64,000 bases of DNA from Isurus oxyrinchus (lineage: Eukaryota). The notes beneath the pieces were generated by a model. The model did not search any database and was not told the origin of the DNA. It worked only from the letters and a program-made list of their open reading frames with translations. Numbering within the stretch: the stretch's first letter is position 1; every line of letters starts with the position of its first letter. The DNA lies in the NCBI GenBank assembly GCA_026770705.1, contig JANJGN010000005.1, positions 76,012,001 through 76,076,000 on the forward strand. Reading direction: 5' to 3'. This document shows, one piece after another, positions 13,561 through 61,216 of this stretch. Both the position numbers and the translations under genes were made by a program.

Positions 13561-15157
13561 TCATCTCCACCATTGTCACCTCCTCACACTCATCCCTTCA
13601 TCTTTATCCCAGGCCGGGGAGGGGTGGGGCACATCAGTCCACTCTCAGTCGTGCCCAGTACATTGTGCGAAGAGCACGGTCAGTGCCTTACTCACGGCAG
13701 TCTGGGGGGTTTCTGGCATTGTACTCAGCCACAGATGGCACAGTCACTGTCAGGGGAGGCATCTGCAACCTATAGGTTGGGAACAGATAGTATAGGGTCG
13801 GGCACTCAATGGTCTCATGGTGGGGAGGTCCCGATAGATCCCAGTACGTTAAGTTTCAAGATGGGGAGGACCATCACGTCAAACAACATAGGGATAACAA
13901 AGGTATATCTGCCACAATAACAATGGGATCAAGGAGAGTAATCGGAGGGAGGGAAACCTGAACGTTTTGCTCCTTCAGGACGATGGGAGGGATTTCCATG
14001 GTCTGGTAATAAAACCTGAGGACCACCATCTTGGAACCTGAAGCAATGGAGCAGTGAAAAATGAAACTTCAATCAATGCTGCTGGGGAGGACGACTTCTG
14101 GAAGGAATGTTTCACAGCACAGGGCAGCCAATTAAACAGGCACCCATCTGAAATCTGTATTCCCAAATGAGGAGGAATGCACAGCTGAGGCATGTGAGGC
14201 GATAACGAGCCATCAATCTAAAAGTGCGTTCATACAAGATTAATTCCGATTAGTTCTAATTATCAATATCTGTGCAGTAACCCTTTACAACAATCTGGTT
14301 GGGGCTTGGCCTAAATAGCCAAGTGGTGATGGTACTGGGTTTGTAACCCCAAGATCGAGAGTTCAAATCTCACAGTGGCAAACAATGTAACTTCATCTGA
14401 AACAGATGGAAATGGGTTTGTACTCGAAAGAGTATCAAGAGTTCAAATCTCACAATGGCAAACTATGAAACAATGTAACTTCATCTGAATAAACAGATGG
14501 AAACGGGTTTGTACTCGAAAGAGTATGAAGAGTTCAAATCTCACAATGGCAAACTATGAAACAATGTAACTTCATCTGAAACAGATGGAAACGGGTTTGT
14601 GCTTGAAAGAGTATCAGGAGTTCAAATCTCACAATGGCCAACTATGAAACAATGTAACTTCATCTGAATAGGAACAGATGGAAATGTGTTTTGGCCTAAA
14701 TGGCCAAGTGGTTATGGTCCTGGGTTTGTAACCCCAAGATCAAGAGTTCAAATCTCACAATGGCAAACAATGTAAATTCATCTGAAACAGATGGAAACGG
14801 GTTTGTACTCGAAAGAAATCAAGAGTTCAAATCTCACAATGGCAAACTATGAAACAACATCTGAAACAGATGGAAATGGGTTTGTACTCGAAAGAGTTTC
14901 TGGGTTTGTAACCCCAAGATCAAGAGTTCAAATCTCACAATGGCAAACTATGAAACAATGTAACTTCATCTGAAACAGATGGAAACGTGTTTGTACTCGA
15001 AAGAGTCACAGGTGCAAAGCCACTTTGAGCTTGGCCTAAAATAGCCAAGTGGTTATGGTACTGGGTTTGTAACCCCAAGATCAAGAGTTCAAATCTCACA
15101 ATGGCAAACTATGAAACAATGTAACTTCATCTGAAAAACAGATTGAAGACTAATTTT

Positions 15158-15288
15158 GGCTTGGCCTAAATAGCCAAGTGGTTATGGTACTGGGTTTGTA
15201 ACCCCAAGATCAAGAGTTCAAATCTCACAATGGCAAACAATGTGGCTTCATCTGAAACAGATGGAAACGGGTTTGTGCTCAAAAGAGT
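15158..15288 (+). mobile_element. Representative tRNA-Thr(UGU)-derived SINE-like monomer
   Basis: Pol III A box TAGCCAAGTGG, anticodon arm CTGGG-TTTGTAA-CCCCA, B box GAGTTCAAATC. 3' hairpins TCATCTG-AAA-CAGATGG and, in most units, CTC-GAAA-GAG. The acceptor stem is poorly paired, so it is not a functional tRNA. Confidence 0.8.
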
Positions 15289-15816
15289 ATCAAGAGTTCA
15301 AATCTCACAATGGCAAACTATGAAACAATGTAACTTCATCTGAAAAACAGATGGAAATGTTTTGCTTGGCCTAAACAGCCAAGTGGTTATGGTACTGGGT
15401 TTGTAACCCCAAGATCAAGAGTTCAAATCTCACAATGGCAAACTATGAAACAATGTAACTTCATCTGAAACAGATGGAAATGGGTTTGTACTTGAAAGAG
15501 TTACAAGCTTTAGCTTGGCCTAAATAGCCAAGTGGTTATGGTACTGGGTTTGTAACCCCAAGATCAAGAGTTCAAATCTCACAATGGCAAAACTATGAAA
15601 CAATGTAACTTCATCTGAAACGGATTGTGCTCGAAAGAGTATCAAGAGTTCAAATCTCACAATGGCAAACTATGAAACAATGTAACTTCATCTGAACCAG
15701 ATGGAAACGGGTTTGTGCTTGAAAGAGTATCAAGAGTTCAAATCTCACAATGGCAAACTATGAAACAATGTAACTTCATCTGAAACAGATGGACACGGGT
15801 TTGTGCTCGAAAGAGT

Positions 15817-15937
15817 GCCTACGGCCATACTAGTCTGAAAACGCCCGATCTCGTCTGATCTCGGAAGCTAAGCAGACTTAGGCCTGGTTAGTACTTGGAT
15901 GGGAGACCGCCTGGGAATACCAGGTGCAGTAGGCTTT
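15817..15937 (+). rRNA. 5S rRNA, full mature length (probable retrocopy)
   Basis: GCCTACGGCCATAC...GCCCGATCTCGTCTGATCTCGGAAGCTAAGC...TTAGTACTTGGATGGGAGACCGCCTGGGAATACCAGGTGCAGTAGGCTTT. Starts at +1 and ends at UUU, with no 5S spacer DNA on either side. Confidence 0.97.
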
Positions 15938-16677
15938 AGCTTGGCCTAAATAGCCAAGTGGTTATGGTACTGGGTTTGTAACCCCAAGATCGAGAGTTCA
16001 AATCTCACAATGGCAAACTATGAAACAATGTAACTTCATCTGAAACAGATGGACACGGGTTTGTGCTCGAAAGAGTATCAAGAGTTCAAATCTCACAATG
16101 GCAAACTATGAAACAATGTAACTTCATCTGAAACAGATGGAAACGGGTTTGTACTCGAAAGAAATCAAGGGTTCAAATCTCACAATGGCAAACTATGAAA
16201 CAATGTAACTTCATCTGAATAGGAACAGATGGAAACATGTTTGTAGTCAAAAGAGTTACATAGCCTGGTATAATCTGTCTGGCTTTTGGGCTTGGCATAA
16301 ATAGCCAAGTGGTTATGGTACTGGGCTTGTAACCCCAAGATCAAGAGTTCAAATCTCACAATGGCAAACTATGAAACAATGTAACTTCATCTGAATAGGA
16401 ACAGATGGAAACGTGTTTGTACTCGAAAGAGTTACAAGCTACACTGGGAGAATTTATAAATAATCAAGAGTTCAAATCTCACAATGGCAAATTATGAAAC
16501 AATATAACTTCATCTGAAACAGATGGAAATGGGTTTGTACTCGAAAGAGTTACACCCAAGTCAACCTGATTCTTGGCTTGGCCTAAATAGCCAAGTGGTT
16601 ATGGCAATGGGTTTGTAACCCCAAGATCAAGAGTTCAAATCTCACAATAGGAAACAATGTAACTTCATCTGAAACAG

Positions 16678-17745
16678 ATGGAAACAGGTTTGTACTCAAA
16701 ACAGTTACTGTGGTTACCAAGGAAACATTTGTTACCCCTCCGTCCTTTTCAGTGGTTGGCGGAGAGGAGGGCTGTGGCCACAGGGGTGACCAGGATCGGG
16801 GACATGCTGGGTGGCGGAGGACTGGGCTGGATGCTCCCGCGGGAGTTGGCGCGATGCGCGTCTGTGAGTGTCCAGGTCGCAGCCAATGCCATCCAAGACC
16901 TGAGAACGGTTGTGCTCGGACCCGACGTTATTTTGGGTCTTGAGGTGGCCCAGGCGCGTGGTGGTCTTCCGTCTGAACGTTCCCCTGTTCGGACAGAATT
17001 CCACATTGGCCCCAAGCCCCGAACCCTCCCTCGGGTGCTGGTGCCCCGCAATATGAGCCGCCTCGGGGACATGCCCTCCCTGCCTTTTGGCACGGCAAAG
17101 AGGGGCTTTTTGTACAGACTGCTGCTGCACACCTTCCATTTTCTTGCCCTTGTCCGCCGCCCGGACATGCCCTGGCGTGCCTTGTTGCCGTCCGGTGGTG
17201 GAGGCCCCCGATGGGAGGCCCTCTATGGAGGTGTCCTCCCCCTTTCTATCGGGGACCTGGGTTGGAGGGTGTTGCATGCATCAGTCCCCTATAATAAGAG
17301 GATGCATAGGTTCACAGACTCTCAGGACACGTGCCCTTTTTGCGGTCTTATGGAGTCCGTGGACCATGTATACATAGGGTGTTGTAGGCTGCACTCCCTT
17401 TTTAGTTATTTGAAAAACCTTTTATTGATGTTTTGTTTGCACTTCAGCCCCACACTCCTGATCTATGGGCACCCGGTGCGGAAGGGGGTCGGGAAGGAGG
17501 AGGACCTCCTCGTGAACCTGCTCCTGGGCCTGGCCAAGTTGGCCATTAACAGGTCCAGGCAGCAGGCGATCGACGGGGGAGTCCCGCCCGATTGTTTGTC
17601 CCTCTTCCGCGGCTACGTTCGCTGCCGGATGTCCCTGGAGAGGGAGCACGCGGTGTCTGCTGGCACTCTCGAGGCCTTCCATGCTCGGTTGGCACCGCGG
17701 GGACTGGGGTGTTTTGTTGACCCCTTTAATCACATTTTGATTTAA
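16678..17745 (+). CDS. Open frame covering Tx1 ORF2 C-terminal (zf-RVT-like CCHC) domain; first ~20 codons come from the SINE unit and junction filler
   Basis: 355-aa ORF with no stops and a C-X2-C-X7-H-X4-C motif. It lacks APE and RT domains, so it is not autonomous. Confidence 0.55.
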   Translation: METGLYSKQLLWLPRKHLLPLRPFQWLAERRAVATGVTRIGDMLGGGGLGWMLPRELARCASVSVQVAANAIQDLRTVVLGPDVILGLEVAQARGGLPSERSPVRTEFHIGPKPRTLPRVLVPRNMSRLGDMPSLPFGTAKRGFLYRLLLHTFHFLALVRRPDMPWRALLPSGGGGPRWEALYGGVLPLSIGDLGWRVLHASVPYNKRMHRFTDSQDTCPFCGLMESVDHVYIGCCRLHSLFSYLKNLLLMFCLHFSPTLLIYGHPVRKGVGKEEDLLVNLLLGLAKLAINRSRQQAIDGGVPPDCLSLFRGYVRCRMSLEREHAVSAGTLEAFHARLAPRGLGCFVDPFNHILI

Positions 17746-17854
17746 AGTTTGTAAGTTTCCTTTAAACTTTGTTCTTGGTTTTACAGCTGACCTGAATTAG
17801 GGGCTGTGCCTGATTTATCCCAATTTTGTTGATTTGGTTTTCATATAAAAGATC
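16737..17854 (+). mobile_element. 5'-truncated Tx1-clade (L1 group) non-LTR retrotransposon
   Basis: GC/CpG-rich. Uninterrupted ORF2 C-terminus with DLGWRVLH, zinc knuckle CPFCGLMESVDHVYIGC and LLLGLAKLAI. Short T-rich 3' UTR ending TATAAAAGA. Confidence 0.88.
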
Positions 17855-19439
17855 ATCAAGAGTTCAAATCTCACAATGGCAAACTATGAAACAATGTAAC
17901 TTCATCTGAAACAGATGGAAACGGGTTTGTACTCGAAAGAAATCAAGAGTACAAATCTCACAATGGCAAACTATGTAACAATGTAACTTCATCTGAATAG
18001 GAACAGATGGAAATGGGTTTGTACTCAAAAGAGTTACAAGCTACACTGGGAGAATTTATAAATCAAGAGTTCAAATCTCACAATGGCAAACTATGAAACA
18101 ATGTAACTTCATCTGAAACAGATGGAAATGGGTTTGTACTCAAAAGATTTAAAAGATTATCAAGAGTTCAAATCTCACAAAGGCAAACTATGAAACAATG
18201 TAACTTCATCTGAATAGGAACAGATGGAAACAGGTTTGTACTTGAAAGAGTTACAAAACAAATCAAGAGTTCAAATCTCACAATGGCAAACTATGATGCT
18301 TGTCCTGGTGAAGTCTTTAATAGACAAAAATTTTTAAATAGCCAAGTGGTTATGGTACTGGCCTTGTAACCCCAAGATCAAGAGTTCAAATCTCACAATG
18401 GCAAACTATGAAACAATGTAACTTCATCTGAATAGGAACAGATGGAAACATGTTTGTACTTGAAAGAGTTACAACAATCTGGTTATTCCCCTCTGTGATA
18501 GCAACTCCAAAAACAAGTGGGTACCTGATAAGCAGGAGAAGCCTTTTGGGAACACTCCCTCAGAATCTCATCGCTGCCACATTCAGGGATGAGAATCCTA
18601 GGCCCCCAAAAAGAATCTAATGGCCTCACAGAATATCTACCCTCATGTGTTTTGCAAAGGATGTAGTCATTCAATCCACTGAATGAGTAATGTGTAAACT
18701 GGAATAAATGCAGGCCAGCCATGTGCCTGGCCAAGTCCATCTCTTAGCAATAGGTTTACTGAGATGGGGGAAAGGCAGGGGTGGGGTTTGTGGGGTGGAG
18801 GAGAAGGATACTGTGACACAGAGTGTTCATAGCCATGGCCACGATTGCATTGGCTAACAGGTGTCTGTACTGTAAGCAAGCCCCTAAAGCCACAGTCACT
18901 CACTAGTCAGTGACAGAAAAAGAACCTTCAGAGGCTGCTAACTGATATTTTTATTTCAGCGATCCAATAGGCAGGAGAACATGAAGAAAATGGAGGCTGC
19001 ATTTAACGCTGTCTGCATCATCACAAGGCAGGCAGGAGTGTGCACGATTTCTGAGTATGACCTTTTAGATTGCAGGCCCTAAGGGATGACAGAGAGTACA
19101 TGGAGATGCGCATCTATATCTCTCCTAGTGCATCGTATCTTCACTTTTCCACAATGCAGATTAGCCGAGGGACTACATGAGCCTCCATCTTACACAGCCG
19201 AGAATGAACATCATTTATAATTGCAATGCTTGTCAACAAGATGTCTCGCACAAGTACGTTTTAAGGGTGACTCATGACTGATGTTGGAGAACTGAGAAGG
19301 AACACACTCTGTGATGAGATGGCTTCACACAACGTGGACAAGAGTCACGTGATGTGAGATCAGCAATAAGTGGGAGGAGGCAACATAGTGTGACCTCTAA
19401 TAGATCACAACACAACTCAGCATTCAGAGGAGGAGTGCA

Positions 19440-31299: not shown

Positions 31300-33900
31300 G
31301 AGTGTTACTGATTCTGACAGGGAGGACAGAGAGGTTTTTTTTGCCTTATGTATAAAGCCTCCTTTTGGGTTGAAAACTGACAGGGACATGGAGCTGAAGT
31401 TGCAGAGAAGGGAAGCTGTGCACAGAGGATTTTCCACAGAAGGCCTTACACAGCTAAGTTTTTCAGGGAGCACACCTCACTTGCACCCCAGCCAGGAACA
31501 GTGCCATTCCCCAGGGAGGTGATCACAAAACTGTGTCAACAGACCTAGCCTCATAGCAAGGACGAGGACGAGGACGAGGTTTCCAGTCTACTAAAGTGCA
31601 GTTAGTGAGCCGGCCAGGCAGGAGGGTAGGGCAGGGTACACTGTGCCCCTCGTTTTTCAGGTGATTGCTTTGCTGCCCTCCTGAGGAGGTCGCAGCACGG
31701 CGGGAGGTCCTCGTACCTCAGGACGGGAGGAGGAGGTCTGCTCACATGACCAAACGTGGCTGGGAGGAGGTGGCGGAGGTGGTGAGCTCCCACGATGTGT
31801 TGCGGTGCACATGGATCTAGTGCTGCAAGTGCTTTAATGACCTGTTACGCTCAGGAAGGGCGAGTACCATGTTGGCAAGGACTGCCTGTAGTCATAAAGT
31901 TCACTTTCTCTCTCAACTTCTTTGCAGCCAGGTCCTTATAGGTGAGAGCAAGTTACATTGCCAACATTTCCCAGTTTGCCATCCATCTTTGTACCTGAGA
32001 GGTGCCATAGGTCCTATATGAACAGAGAGGAGTCCGCATTATCTCTCGAAGCAGAAAGAGCATAGGATCATAAGAAATAGGAGCAGGAGTAGACTACACA
32101 GCTCATTAAGCCTGCTCCACCATTCAATACTCTCATGGCTGTTCTTGGGCATCAACTCCAAAGAAACAGAAGGATGGGCATGTGGCGGAGGGATTCCAAT
32201 GGTGTAGGGAGCCATTGACTGTATGCATGTGGCTCTGCCGGTTCTTACCTCAAAGGTTTCTGATCTATTAAAGTGCAGTTGGTGAATAATCATATACAGA
32301 CCATCATGTGAATGAAAGCTTACTATCCTGACAGCCATGACACCTTCATCCTGAGGCAGTCTGCTGTGATCTCTGTGCCACCATGAAGAACCAGAACCTG
32401 ATTGTTTGGAGAGAAAGGCAGACGATCCCTCAACCATCTGACGATGACGTGATCCATCCTGCCGGCTATAATGGAGAAGACCATCAGCATTCTCAAACAA
32501 CAGTTCTGCTGCCTGGACCCCTCCAACATTTGATGAAGTGTGTCCAAATTTCCTTCATAACCTTGCGATTATGAGGGCACAGATTTTGCCACCATGGTGG
32601 TCAGTCACTTCAGCAGGCAGAGGAGGCCCCTTTTTTCTGGGCAGATTGTCTGTGAGTGCATACTGAGTATTCGGTTTCCTTAAGACATCGCCATCTTTCA
32701 ATCCTTTCTTTTATTTATTGGATGTGGGCATCACTGGCTAGGCCAGCATTTATTGCCCATCCTAATTGTTCTTGTTTAGAGGGCATTTAAGAGTAAACCA
32801 CATTGCTGTGGGTCTGGATTCACATGTAGCCAGACCAGGTAAGGATGATTGAAGCAGATAGGTTTTTAAGGCAATCAGCAATGGTTTCATTCGATTTTTA
32901 ATTCCAGATTTTTATTGAGTTCAAGTTCCACCAATTGCCATGGCAGGATTTGAACCCAGATTCCTCAGATCATTATGCTGGGTTCTGGATTACTAGTCCA
33001 GTGACAATACCACTACACCATCGCCTCCCTATTTGCTGTGAATCATCACAGAGTCCTCTAGGACAAAATCTTGAACTAAAAGGAATCAACAAAAAATATT
33101 TCCAGAACAACTTTATATAGTACATTAATACATACAAACCTGAATTATTCATTTGATAGTAGGTTAGTGCTCCACTGAAACCCTCTGGTGTGGTGCGTCA
33201 GTAATCCTAGAAGACAGATTACTGGACTGCCTCGAGTGCCTGCAAGCTTCCGTGAGCATTGAGATCTACAGCCATGATAATAGCAGTCTGAGCCTGTATA
33301 TGGCAGCAAACATGAATCTCATGAACTCAGTCTAAGCTTCCATTGCAGCACTGAGACATAGTGTGGGTTCCCCCAATTCTGCAGTGGAAAGCGAGATATC
33401 AGCCATCAGAAGGTGTATCATGTGTGAGTCCACAGTGTTGCCATGAAGTTGGCCCACCACTCCTACGCTGGAAAGCATGGGCTCCAAGCTTTGCATGATG
33501 CTGTGTACCACTTTAGAGCTAGGGTCCTCCATGCTCCTTGACAGTGGCAACAAGTGATCTGACAGGCCAGCCAATGCACCAATCATCTCTGTGTGCATTC
33601 TTATCAGCATTCTCCTGTAAACTACTCGATCAAAGTCCTCAACTTAGCACCCTATAACAGAACCCATATCCAACCTGGTACTCCAGTAAGATGGCACATG
33701 AACAATCTTTTCCGCCTGGCTTAGCTGCAGCCTATTCGTGCTAGGTGACTCACCACGTGCAGATCCCAACTCTATACTGTTCTCTGAGATATGTGCAGTA
33801 GTAGTATCTGAAATGATGGTTCTATTTGTCAGATCAAGTGAGGGTGCTTCCTTATCAGAGGTCTCTAGCAGCTCTTGTCCTTCCTCAAGAGGCCACAGGG
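31300..33900. mobile_element. Old, heavily decayed Harbinger (transposase + strand ~31350-32650, Myb remnant - strand ~33160-33900) with nested inserts
   Basis: GAIDCMHVAL at ~32207 and SHDTFILRQS at ~32332. Nested inserts are an inverted Myb exon copy, a CR1 tail and a SINE. Confidence 0.6.
32710..33029 (-). mobile_element. tRNA-derived SINE
   Basis: Reverse complement starts GGGAGGCGATGGTGTAGTGG (A box) and has GGGTTCAAATCC (B box). The 3' tail is shared with LINE ends at ~22405-22450. Confidence 0.7.
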
Positions 33901-56272: not shown

Positions 56273-59200
56273 GGGCAGGATCATCTCAGATTTGCATTAA
56301 GTGCGGTAGCATATGGTAAAACGATGTTTTACCTGCCGGCTGTAATGACAGCTTTTCATGCCGTTTCATTCCAAACCCACTACATTAATAATGCATTCCT
56401 GGGAAATACACCATTTTGGGCAGGCTCTGATTTGCCCACTACACTATCACCTTGCCGCTTCAGCACGCCGGGCACCATATTGGGGAGCACCAAGATGTAG
56501 CGGCAGGATTAGGAAAGTTAAGAAGGTGTAGTTGTACAACCCGGGCACAGGTGTTAATCACTTGTACATACTTTTCACTATTGTCAATCAACTCCCAAGA
56601 GTGTCTCCATGCCTATGGCTCCTTGTTCTGATGAGCAGAGTCGGTTTCATTCAGATGTGAAGCCTTTCTGTACAAGATAAAGGCAGGTGTTTCAGTCCAG
56701 GGCCTCTTCCCTGTGCTTTGTGCAGCCTTCAGACCAAATTAATGGTCCGGCCTCACGCTCCCTGGACGCATTACTGCTGCACATGGACGGTGCTTGTCAT
56801 TGCTCCAGAATGTTGTGGGCAGGTGTCACAGCACCTTTAAGGTGGGGCTGGCCCCTATCTCTTCAGCATCTGTGACCAGTGATGCTGTGCTACTGAAGGG
56901 GTCAGGTGCTGAAGCCAGACAAATGATCAGATGCTTTTAAAGTTTCTTGATGCGTCTCTATGATGATCACAGGGCGCAAGCGAGCTGCCCTTGGCCAGAC
57001 AGGAATCAGACATTCTCAGTGGCTATATTAAGATTTATGGAGTGTCCTCATTGCATGTCGTCATCATCCTGCAATCAAGTGACTTGATTGAGGCTTCCAC
57101 TGCATCTCCATGACAGGAGCATTATCACAGAGGGTATGTGCGTTACCATAAGTCAGACTGGACTCAAACTTCATTAGATGCAAGGCAAGGATCTATGGTG
57201 TCTCCACATTGTATGTTGTCATCACCCTCCACAAATCTAGCAGCTATGAGGGCCTCTCAAGCATGCCTGCCTCATACGTTCACTTTGCTGCAGTCTGAGG
57301 CTGCTGCAAGGGTGTCATCAGCCACGGCCTCTGTGAGTAGCCCTCGTCCCCGAGAAGCCATCCCTGCAGCTCCTATGGACCCTGGAAGGCGTCAGGGATC
57401 TGTGACCGACTGAGAATGTAGGAGTCGTGCACACTCCCTGCAAACCGTATGCAGACCTGCAGGATGCATTTCTGGTGGTCATGCACAATCAGTGCATGGA
57501 ATACGGTGCAGTTGATATAGTTGACTCTGTGTTGCGATGGAGATCTGAGTACCATGTGAATGCAGTCAATGGCACCCTTCACCTGTCGGAAACCCGAGAC
57601 CTGGGCAAATCCAATTGGTCTTGCATCCTGGCTGTCCTGGTCCTGGGTGAAATGTACAAAGTTGTGTGCCCTCGTGAAGATAGATCTGTGACCTCATGGG
57701 TGCCTTTGTGGGTGGAGGCTTGTGATATCCCACAGAGGTCTGTAGAGCCCTGAAAGGAGCCACTGGCTTAAAAATTGAACACCACAATCACTTCATGGCC
57801 ACTGGCAGTGGATGCCCTCCATGTCCCTGTGGTACCAAGTTCTGCAGTAGCAGCAGATGGGACTGGCCAGTTCCCTAGACATGTGCAGTCTTCGGCAACA
57901 CTGGTTCTCAGTCATCTGCAGGAATGAAAGGCGGCATCTGTAGACCCCGGCTATAGCTAGGTGCCAACGGCTCACTGTGGCTTTTTGGCAGTGTTTACGG
58001 GAGCCCCAGACACCTCTTCTTCCTGAGGGTGCTACTGCTCCCTCCGCACAGCCAGATGCCTCCGTCTCTCTATTCTCAGTTGCTTCACTCTCTGTAAGCC
58101 ACAAGATCACCAGGCTCCATGATCCTGACATACTCCTCCTGCAGGATGAAGGAGAAAGAGAGATATATCGGTTAGCATGGGTGTACTAAGAACCTGCCTC
58201 GATTAAGTCTGAAGGCCCCTTAACACATCCCAGAGAGTGCTGGCCACTACTTGGATGGCCAGAGATTAGTGCGTTGCTTGGCTGTCCAAAACCCCACCTT
58301 CTTCCGCCTCACTCCACCTGACCGATTGGCAGCAGCTTTGCCCATTGGACTGCATGCTGTGCTCTCAGCTCAGGTGCAGGGCTGCACTGTTAGTTTGAAC
58401 CATGTGGGGGGCTGGTCCAAATCAGGATGCTGACATTGTAAGAGGCTACGTGCACCTTCACCAGTGACTGCTCCATGGCCAGCTTTAGCAAGGAGATTGT
58501 ACAGCATGTCCAGTCGCCCAATTGTTCGGCAGTCCACTAAAACACTCATTGCTTTGCCGTCTGTGCCTGAGATGTCAAACGCTCTTGAGCACTTGTTGGC
58601 ACTTTGATGCCTCTGCGTTGCTTGAGTTAGCAGATAAGCTAGCAGCCAGACTTCAATCATGTCAAAAATAAAAATAAAAATACCTGGAAAAATGCCCAAC
58701 CGCCTCCTCTTCACCATGGATATCCAATCCCTCTACACCTCCATCCCATACCAGGATGGTCTGAGGGCTCTCCGCTTCTTCCTTGAACAGAGGCCCGAAT
58801 AATCCCCCTCTACCACTACACTCCTCTGTCTGGCTGAACCTGTTCTCACACTGAACAATTTCTCCTTAAACTCCTCTCACGTCCTCCAAATAAAAGGTGT
58901 GGCTATGGGTACCTGCATGGGCCCCAGTTATCCTTGTCTCTTTATGGGGTATGTGGAACATTCCTTATTCCAGTCCTACTCCGGCCCCCTTCCACAACTC
59001 CTTCTCCGGTACATTGATGATTACTTCAGTGCTGCTTCATGCTCTCCTCTGGACCTGGAAAAATTTATTAATTTTGCTTCCAATTTCCACCCCTCCATAA
59101 TTTCACATGGTCCATCTCGGACACTTCCCTTCCTTGACCTCTCTGTCTCAATTTCTGGTGATAGTCAGTTCACCAACATTCATTACAAGCCTACCGACTC

Positions 59201-61216
59201 CCACAGCTACTTCGGCTATAGCTCCTCACACCCCGCTTCCTGTAAGGACTCCATCCCATTCTCCCAGTTTCTTAACTTCCGTCGCTCTGTTCTGATGACG
59301 CCACTTTCAAAAACAGTTCCCCTGAAATGTCTTCCTTCTTTCTTAACTGAGGTTTTCCACCTATGGTGGTTGACAGGGACCTCAACTGTGTCTGGCCCAT
59401 CTCCTGCGCATCCGCCCTCACACCTTCCTCTCCCTCTCAGAACCATGATAAGGTCCCCCTTGTCCTCACTTATCACCTCACCAGCCTCCGCATTCAAAGG
59501 ATCATCCTCCGCCATTTCTGCCAACTCCAGCATGATGCCACCACCAAACACATCTTCCCTTCACCCCCTCGGCAGCATTCTGCAGGGATCGTTCCCTCCG
59601 GGACACCCTGGTCCACTCCTCCATCACTCCCTGCACATCAACCCCCTCCCTCGGCACCTTCCCAAGCAACCACAGAAGGTGCAACACCTGCCATCTGCCC
59701 CTTTACTTTCCGTCTCCTCACTGTCCAAGGGCCCAAACACTCCTTTCAAATGAAGCAGCATTTCACTTGCACTTCCCTCAATTTAGTCTACTGTATTCGT
59801 TGCTCCCAATGCAGTTTCCTCTACATTGGAGAGATTAAAAGCAGATTGGGTGATCACTTTGCGGAACACCTTTGGTCTGTCCGCAAGCATGACCCAGACC
59901 TCCCTGTCGCTTGCCATTTCAACACTCCACCCTGTTCTCATGCCCACATGTCCGTCCTTGGCCTGCTGCATTGTTCCAGTGATGCTCAACACAAACTGGA
60001 GGAACAGCACCTCATCTTGCGACTAGGCACTTTACCGCCTTCCAGACTGAATATTGAGTTCAACAATTTTAGATCATGAACTCTCTCCTCCATCCCCACC
60101 CCCTTTCCGATCCCCCTCTTTTTTATCCAATAATTTATATAGATTTTTCTTTTCCCACCTATTTTCATTATTTTTAAATGTATTTCCATCCATTGTTTTA
60201 TCTCTACCTTTTACCCTTTTTTGATTCCTTCACCCCACCCCACCTCCACTAGGGCTATCTGTACCTTGCTTGTCCTGCTTTCTACCCTTAATTAGCACAT
60301 TTCTTAGATAACATCACCACCTTCAACACACCTTTGTCCTTTTGTCTGTGATATCTTTTGGTTATCTCTACCTATCACTGGCCCTCTATCCAGCTCTACC
60401 TGTGTCCCCCCCCCACTTCAAACCAGTTTATATTTCACCTCTCTTCTATTTTTACTTAGTTCTGTTGAAGAGTCATACGGACTCGAAACGTTAACTGTGT
60501 TCCTCTCCTCAGATGCTGCCAGTCCTGCTGAGTTTTTCCAGGTATTTTCATTTTTGTTTTGGATTTCCAGCATCTGCAGTTTTTTGCTTTTATCTTAGCT
60601 CCAATCATGTCAATGTGGCTGCACCTGAACTGTCTCAGCTGCACAGGAATTGTCGCTTTATACAAGGTTTCCCTAATCCATGATCTCTTCCCTCGCCCAT
60701 GCCCCCCACCCCGTACATACTTTTGTGCTAACTTCAACCATGGGGTAACCCTTGCACCTCCAACCCCCACAACGTGCCTCAATTGCACGGTAGCCTTCCC
60801 CACCTCCTCCAACATGTCTCAACCTTGAAGTCCAACAGGCGATCCGGCGAGCACTCTGCAGCGTTACTGTGTACTCACCTACGAGATTCCCTCAAAGTGT
60901 TACCTATGAAGTGCCTGCCTTTAACATGCTGTTGTAAAACATGGCGGCATGCATCAACACCAACGTGGGCGGAAAATCCAGCGACATGGTGGGGGGGAGC
61001 GATTCCGGCGAGCTGGGCTTATAATGATATGCAGATGTATTACAATCAGGTTCCCGACATCCAATGGCGGGAAACGCAACCCGCCATCGGCGGGCGGAGT
61101 GGACAATCACAAACTGGTTTCACGACGTCGTGAAACTGATTTTTTGTCTTCTTGCCATATTGTCTGCTCACGCCATCGAACATGCCTGATGCCAGCGGGC
61201 ACAGACGATTCCGCCC
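56273..61216 (-). mobile_element. PIF/Harbinger element (Myb gene deleted, decayed transposase) with both ends
   Basis: TIRs GGGCAGGATCATC and GACGATTCCGCCC, with TAA TSD at 56270-56272 and 61217-61219. Minus-strand GAIDCIHM and GSVHDSYIL. Splits an older CR1 remnant. Confidence 0.9.
58666..60601 (+). mobile_element. 5'-truncated Penelope-like element (RT, GIY-YIG, pseudo-LTR with hammerhead-like motif 60458-60496)
   Basis: LFTMDIQSLYTSIP, GVAMGTCMGP, RYIDD and NLVYCIRCSQCSFLYIGE motifs. Short inverted pLTR piece at the 5' junction. CAATCATGTCAA duplicated at 58654-58665 and 60602-60613. Confidence 0.93.

Follow-up and report, generated by a model that had tools for sequence, protein, structure and literature searches.

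What are the short unique sequences that separate the units of a tandem array of short interspersed elements (SINEs), and where do they come from? The question is raised by an array in a stretch of 64,000 nucleotides (nt) from Isurus oxyrinchus (contig JANJGN010000005.1, positions 76,012,001 to 76,076,000), hereafter the window, to which all coordinates without a contig name refer; loci fetched from the same genome carry L-numbers and its contigs C-numbers. An earlier reading based on the letters of the stretch (the sequence-only reading) had proposed that the spacers, which end in oligo-T right before new SINE heads, are barcodes of transcribed donor loci. Largely in keeping with that proposal, we conclude, with a probability of roughly 80%, that the spacers before heads are copies of DNA lying downstream of SINEs elsewhere in the genome, likely made as read-through RNAs of RNA polymerase III (Pol III) and likely joined by the jumping reverse transcriptase (RT) of a Tx1-type long interspersed element (LINE).

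The array and its SINE family

The array (14304-18469; all window features are on the forward strand unless stated otherwise) comprises 26 aligned pieces and 10 heads of a tRNA-derived SINE of 138 nt, which consists of a 50-nt head and an 88-nt unit (positions 51-138). Its entire 4.2 Kbp are flanked by one 15-bp direct repeat (14286-14300 and 18470-18484), no copy of which occurs inside the array. We regard the repeat as a target-site duplication, because a paralogous site 1.6 Mb away (L103) carries the 15-bp word once and lacks any SINE, as expected for an empty site. A complete 5S rRNA copy (15817-15937; Rfam RF00001, 111.5 bits, model positions 1-120) and a 1.1-kb LINE fragment had escaped the sequence-only reading. 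The 5S copy proper (15817-15935) adjoins a unit end on its left, and its 3' end supplies the T run before the head at 15939 on its right.

The SINE family is large and young, with 17,470 exact matches to 23 nt of the head genome-wide and a median difference of 2.9% among 316 full-length pieces. The head is related to tRNA, as the one at 15944-16015 scored 30 bits against the Rfam tRNA model (gathering threshold 29) and eight other heads scored weaker. A script found target-site duplications at 26 of 53 complete arrays, and the T-run ends described below suggest that the SINE is transcribed by Pol III. The right flank of the window's array is an old repeat, in which an independent SINE array sits at an almost identical position elsewhere (L107; C4:76658313), marking a hot target site. 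An inverted, array-free paralog of the flanks (L112; C5:74428000-74436800) matches the left flank at 99% over 300 bp and the right one at 90%.

Most of the listed spacers trace to single SINE loci elsewhere

All five spacers listed by the sequence-only reading, as well as both copies of a repeated trailer (at 16438 and 18040), were recovered letter for letter; their coordinates were right, albeit the spacers begin a few bases earlier, at the unit end (15007, 16257 and 16551). T runs indeed precede the heads at 14691, 15364, 15513 and 15939; the first two lie in SINE-derived sequence, and the T-ended trailer before head 15513 (15507-15512) is too short to be traced. When each spacer was searched together with its upstream unit against the same genome, four of the five listed spacers were found behind a SINE on another contig, where the flank continues into unique DNA. 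Spacer 16257-16289 matches L002 (C21:42798645) at 98% over 48 nt and ends in the donor's first run of at least four T (T4+), a T6 followed by unique DNA; the window piece shares with this donor the unit variant 128G, which was seen in one of 588 pieces, namely the donor itself. Spacer 18297-18334 is identical to L034 (C8:71465531) over 61 nt; it, too, extends as far as a T6, the first T4+ run of this donor, and the unit before it is cut at position 85 in both loci. Spacer 16551-16575 matches L004 (C4:24376411) at 94% over 50 nt, starts with the donor's own target duplication and ends at TTCTT; the unit variant 92A (15 of 682 pieces) is common to both. Spacer 15007-15028 agrees with L039 (C4:174214111) at 48 of 48 letters, and ends at the sole T3 within 150 nt of the donor, plus one extra A. 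The unit variants thus agree for L002 and L004, are uninformative for L034 and disagree for L039. The expected T4+ terminator was therefore seen at two of the four donor-matched ends, but not at those of L004 and L039. The L039 flank (window 15011-15028) is a perfect 9-bp inverted repeat, in whose second arm the window copy stops; a hairpin may help termination at T3.

The fifth listed spacer (15144-15158) recurs in three other arrays, each time before a head, with T3-T4 and differing extra letters. The repeated trailer had been ascribed to one frequently used donor, and was in fact traced to L017 (C2:37691142), which we identify as the donor because the first bases of the trailer lie on both sides of its array. 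The trailer is present at 13 other loci among 20 fetched; at several of these it forms the tail of an element that has its own duplication starting with ATCA, and in L023 it is cut at its T3 and followed by a head. Its two copies in the window (16433-16462 and 18035-18061) depart from the proposed pattern, since the next piece is a headless unit starting at position 51 and no terminal T is present.

As the listed spacers had been picked for their T ends, a further trailer of 29 nt, absent from the sequence-only reading, was tested blind. This trailer (16706-16734) follows a unit end and is itself followed by the truncated 5' side of the LINE fragment; it matches L177 (C4:133972655) at 98% over 59 nt. 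The donor is a solitary SINE flanked by a duplication of its own, and in another recipient, L176, the same trailer adjoins a different LINE break. Outside the window, a spacer of L074 was traced to L126, and one of L028 to L030, itself derived from L017. In six donors (L004, L017, L034, L126, L177 and L030), the trailer opens with the donor's own target duplication, so that it represents the pre-existing flank and the direction of transfer is from donor to array. One donor can also supply different ends: the copy of L034 stops at T6 in the window and at T3 in L037. In three of the four donor-matched pieces, a head present in the donor is missing from the window's copy, which begins at position 51; this points to later insertions at that position, and the letter 37C, shared by the head at 16290 and the head of L004 (56 of 463 pieces), hints at such splitting in place. 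An Rfam scan of 14000-19000 gave no match between a spacer and a known small RNA, the 5S copy apart, so the spacers are not ends of known non-coding RNAs (ncRNAs), a source that the sequence-only reading had wanted checked.

Spacer ends across the family

The ends of spacers were then counted in 86 oriented loci, which are search hits rather than a random sample, after removal of window loci and duplicates; query-selected junctions and within-locus repeats were excluded, and a run of at least three T (T3+) was allowed within 2 nt of the end. Among spacers of at least 20 nt before heads, 19 of 38 end in T3+ and 7 of 38 in T4+. The corresponding T3+ baseline was 7.6% in 74 flanks, for 3,034 end points drawn at random, and 3.5% inside spacers (P = 4e-18 against the latter). 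Of 17 spacers confirmed as local target duplications, 2 had T3+ ends, as did 8 of the 49 shorter spacers that remained unclassified; among the 27 spacers before position 51 there was no such end.

Many short spacers in other arrays proved to be local target duplications, which points to re-insertion at the SINE's own end. For this reason, the idea that each spacer identifies a donor holds for the traced spacers of the window but fails for the family as a whole. Internal copies of the local duplication occur in L002, L004, L036, L047 and L113, and ordinary duplications of 12-14 bp at position 51 in L094, L050 and L053. The latter disfavour an origin of headless units by a long target duplication of ~88 bp; we prefer, short of proof, self-insertion with homologous 5' joining or inherited dimers. 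Among 771 pieces (overlapping loci included), position 1 is the most frequent start (328), followed by position 51 (282). The array of L113 (C1:178556108-178565000) exceeds 7 kb; besides two LINE fragments, it contains internal copies of the local duplication and repeated blocks of several elements.

Small Pol III RNAs captured at head junctions

The 5S copy of the window is one of many. A join pattern recovered 53 3' ends of 5S and 32 of U6 adjoining heads, some of them repeats within one locus, and none with reversed-pattern controls; the pattern selects for heads, allows a 5-base gap and under-counts long T runs with extra letters. By hand count, extra letters stand at the join in 35 of the 53 5S rows and 25 of the 32 U6 rows, and T4 or more is kept in 5 of the 32 U6 joins. 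The 5' end of U6 itself also receives RNAs. A tRNA-Tyr copy in L075 retains leader, intron and trailer; its end corresponds to the T5 terminator in a C5 gene cluster and adjoins a head. That cluster (C5:55.35-55.42 Mb) is a tandem series of intron-containing tRNA-Tyr genes with a period of 1,819 bp.

We examined 37 of the 5S/U6 loci (22 of the 53 for 5S and 15 of the 32 for U6). In seven (L137, L140, L145, L146, L154, L159 and L163), the order is duplication, ncRNA, SINE and duplication, so that each chimera, lying within a single duplication, represents one insertion. An eighth match of the script, L143, proved to be SINE sequence. SINE sequence directly precedes the 5S or U6 copy in 10 of the 37 loci, and ends in T3+ in six of these ten, which suggests three templates in a row. 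A head fragment to the left of 5S or U6 was found in none of the 37.

A Tx1-type LINE as candidate mobiliser

The LINE fragment of the window (16735-17854) is the 5'-truncated 3' part of a Tx1-type element, comprising the end of the second open reading frame (ORF2) and the 3' untranslated region, and is joined to SINE position 51; an 11-nt piece at 18148-18158 is identical to the LINE 3' end and again joined to position 51. A protein query gathered 14,832 first-look candidates genome-wide, the best 150 of which share 96-98% amino-acid identity, and intact copies with both frames (ORF1, ~714 aa; ORF2, 1303 aa) exist. ORF2 carries endonuclease (PF03372) and RT (PF00078) domains above cut-off and a zf-RVT domain below it. 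It is 50% identical over its full length to the Xenopus TX1 149-kDa protein (ORF2), an assignment by similarity without a tree; the top local identity was 68%, to a stingray protein, in keeping with a cartilaginous-fish host.

Among the 3' junctions of 30 LINE copies, 27 lead into SINE position 51, one into another LINE and two into unique DNA starting with ATCA. All 30 continue with an ATCA-like word, indicating a target preference. The duplication follows the SINE unit in L070 and L079 and lies at position 51 in L094; the unit behind the LINE thus seems to be partly tail and partly target. Full-length LINE copies in L099 (135-215, minus strand), L100 and L101 begin behind a SINE head and a unit ending at position 62. 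The LINE seemingly took its tail from the SINE into which it inserts, the reverse of the usual direction. From these features we infer that the Tx1-type LINE may mobilise the SINE.

Proposed mechanism

Papers are cited below by PMC number. We propose that Pol III would read from a SINE into the flank of each locus, because the element has no T4 of its own, and would terminate wherever a usable T run first occurs. The RNA that opens an insertion would be primed at a TACA- or ATCA-like word in the genome, through a few base pairs within its tail, so that its trailer is dropped. On reaching the 5' end or stalling, the RT would continue onto the 3' end of another RNA; later RNAs, entered at their very 3' ends, would keep the trailer. 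In vitro, the R2 RT adds untemplated letters, mostly A, and cannot jump unless such overhangs are present (PMC8857657); by analogy, this would favour U-ended RNAs. Arrays would also grow in place, since new insertions can target both the SINE end (TACA) and position 51 (ATCA); such events would leave behind headless units or duplications of local sequence. We take the window's array to be probably a mixture of jumps and in-place growth, not one event of 12 jumps. It likely records copies that were first transcribed and then stitched end to end by a retrotransposon RT.

Several observations weigh against this account. The RNA 3' ends and the jump are deduced from DNA, and the case for the LINE as mobiliser consists solely of common arrays, targets and tail. 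For spacer 15144, two DNA searches and a 21-nt pattern with one mismatch returned recipients only and no donor. The unit of L039 differs from that of the window by four uncommon letters and a 5-nt indel, which leaves room for an intermediate or an altered donor. The stops of two window copies, T3 and TTCTT, fall short of the canonical T4, and 19 of the 38 long spacers across the family have no T3 end. A 41-nt spacer of L036 without a T end matched other loci over only its first ~27 nt, and 19 of the 37 5S/U6 loci have neither a duplication nor a SINE on the left. Finally, the extra letters are mostly sense-strand purines that are also seen before heads at ordinary left ends; they may reflect variable transcription starts rather than additions by the RT.

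Alternative explanations

The spacers would still be donor barcodes if the RNAs were ligated beforehand, an RtcB-type ligase joining a U-tailed RNA to the next RNA and the chimera then being retrotransposed whole. U6 captures do occur in this genome, and joins onto 5'-truncated LINE pieces (window 16734/16735 and L176) resemble the human U6/L1 chimeras for which ligation was demonstrated (PMC6789731). The same study found that a 5'-triphosphate partner is not ligated, the reaction depending on a 2',3'-cyclic phosphate and a 5'-OH. In the present arrays, the partner on the downstream side usually begins with its first base (position 1 in 328 of 771 pieces), and a nascent pre-tRNA is among the captured RNAs. 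The 5' end of U6, which is capped, receives RNAs as well. The signature of an RtcB-type U6 chimera, namely 4-6 T, a precise join and a 5'-truncated partner, was not seen: 25 of the 32 U6 joins have extra letters, the partner is full length, and the rarity of T4 (5 of 32) speaks against ligation, albeit with a pattern that selects for heads, limits the gap and under-counts long T runs. We thus consider prior ligation, although the main rival, unlikely.

The spacers could also arise with no jump at all, if a U-tailed RNA were primed at a nick before an existing head and its 5' end annealed to the duplicated head bases, which would hide the duplication. Growth in place is real, as the internal local duplications and the ordinary duplication at position 51 in L094 attest. 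Nevertheless, 5S, U6 and LINE pieces have no homology to the head, and this scheme would leave a fragment of the head to their left; the count of 0 in 37 argues otherwise. The seven chimeras within one duplication of flanking DNA contradict this scheme for those loci, and the duplications observed start with TACA- or ATCA-like words, able to pair with the tail of the RNA, whereas the head starts differently; we judge the scheme improbable. Still more remote is the copying of SINE and flank between loci at the DNA level, by gene conversion, unequal crossing over or ectopic-template repair. Blocks of several elements repeated with the same spacers in L113 and L059 are in its favour, but it leaves unexplained the stops at T runs (including different T runs of one donor), at mature 5S and U6 ends and at a tRNA gene terminator, as well as the target duplications. 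Serial template jumping by the RT remains our preferred reading.

Comparison with known systems and significance

U6/L1 and other chimeric retrocopies (PMC6789731, PMC4476161) likewise place a copy of a small Pol III RNA 5' of a retroelement within one target duplication. Unlike in those chimeras, the downstream partner is mostly a full-length SINE here, the joins are serial and the U tails often shortened, and the upstream partners are mostly locus-specific SINE read-through RNAs. Crocodilian SINEU elements (PMC4494074) are thought to be moved by Tx1 elements (Tx1-Mar) with a common target preference, and form tandem copies sandwiching a duplication, with 5' extensions that are possibly template jumps; the present family differs in having a tRNA-derived head and in serving as a target for itself, and its added pieces lead back to individual donor loci with T-run ends. 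The squamate SINE-derived satellites (PMC10702118) are also tandem arrays of SINE parts, discussed as products of duplication and homogenisation, whereas the present arrays hold unique spacers with donors elsewhere. A satellite of homogeneous units without foreign spacers does not describe the window's array, the unique spacers of which trace to other contigs. Much as proposed here, the R2 RT in vitro moves on to the 3' end of another RNA molecule, with 0-3 extra letters in between (PMC8857657); the present element belongs to a different clade (Tx1, with an APE-type endonuclease). According to the R2 study, jumping is perhaps not physiologically needed, whereas the shark genome appears to record it many times.

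In the 3' transduction of L1 and SVA, flanking DNA travels with the element and names its source copy. The carried sequence in the arrays is likewise the pre-existing flank of the source copy; the differences are Pol III transcription, a length of 10-70 nt, T-run ends instead of a poly(A) signal and survival mainly at internal joins. Chimeric retrocopies, Tx1-moved tandem SINEs, 3' transduction and SINE satellites each cover a part of the phenomenon. We found no report of donor-traced SINE or Pol III trailers in jump arrays in the literature covered, including the available parts of PMC3747384 and PMC3415434; subscription journals, repeat databases and supplements were mostly outside this coverage, and the families may be catalogued.

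Among thousands of near-identical SINEs, the active sources cannot normally be recognised, since priming removes the unique 3' trailer. With the trailer kept, a single assembly suffices to read which loci acted as sources, how much each was used relative to the others and how they descend from one another (L017 to L030 to L028). The arrays would provide in vivo cases of end-to-end template jumping, the physiological role of which was left open in PMC8857657, and their many natural junctions allow jumping to be weighed against RNA ligation. We lean, with some reserve, towards the broader view that the genome contains thousands of arrays logging germline Pol III transcription, and that serial template jumping by the Tx1 RT is a routine mode of spread. 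If true, the full set of spacers would show, over several generations and with direction, which SINE source locus gave rise to which, and would map where termination takes place in vivo, even at weak sites.

Other features of the window

Two features lie apart from the array. ARAGORN predicted a tRNA-Thr(AGT) gene or tRNA-like element at 32936-33024 on the minus strand. A 316-aa open frame at 58803-59753 (plus strand) resembles a decayed RT of another class, which we take to be Penelope-like.

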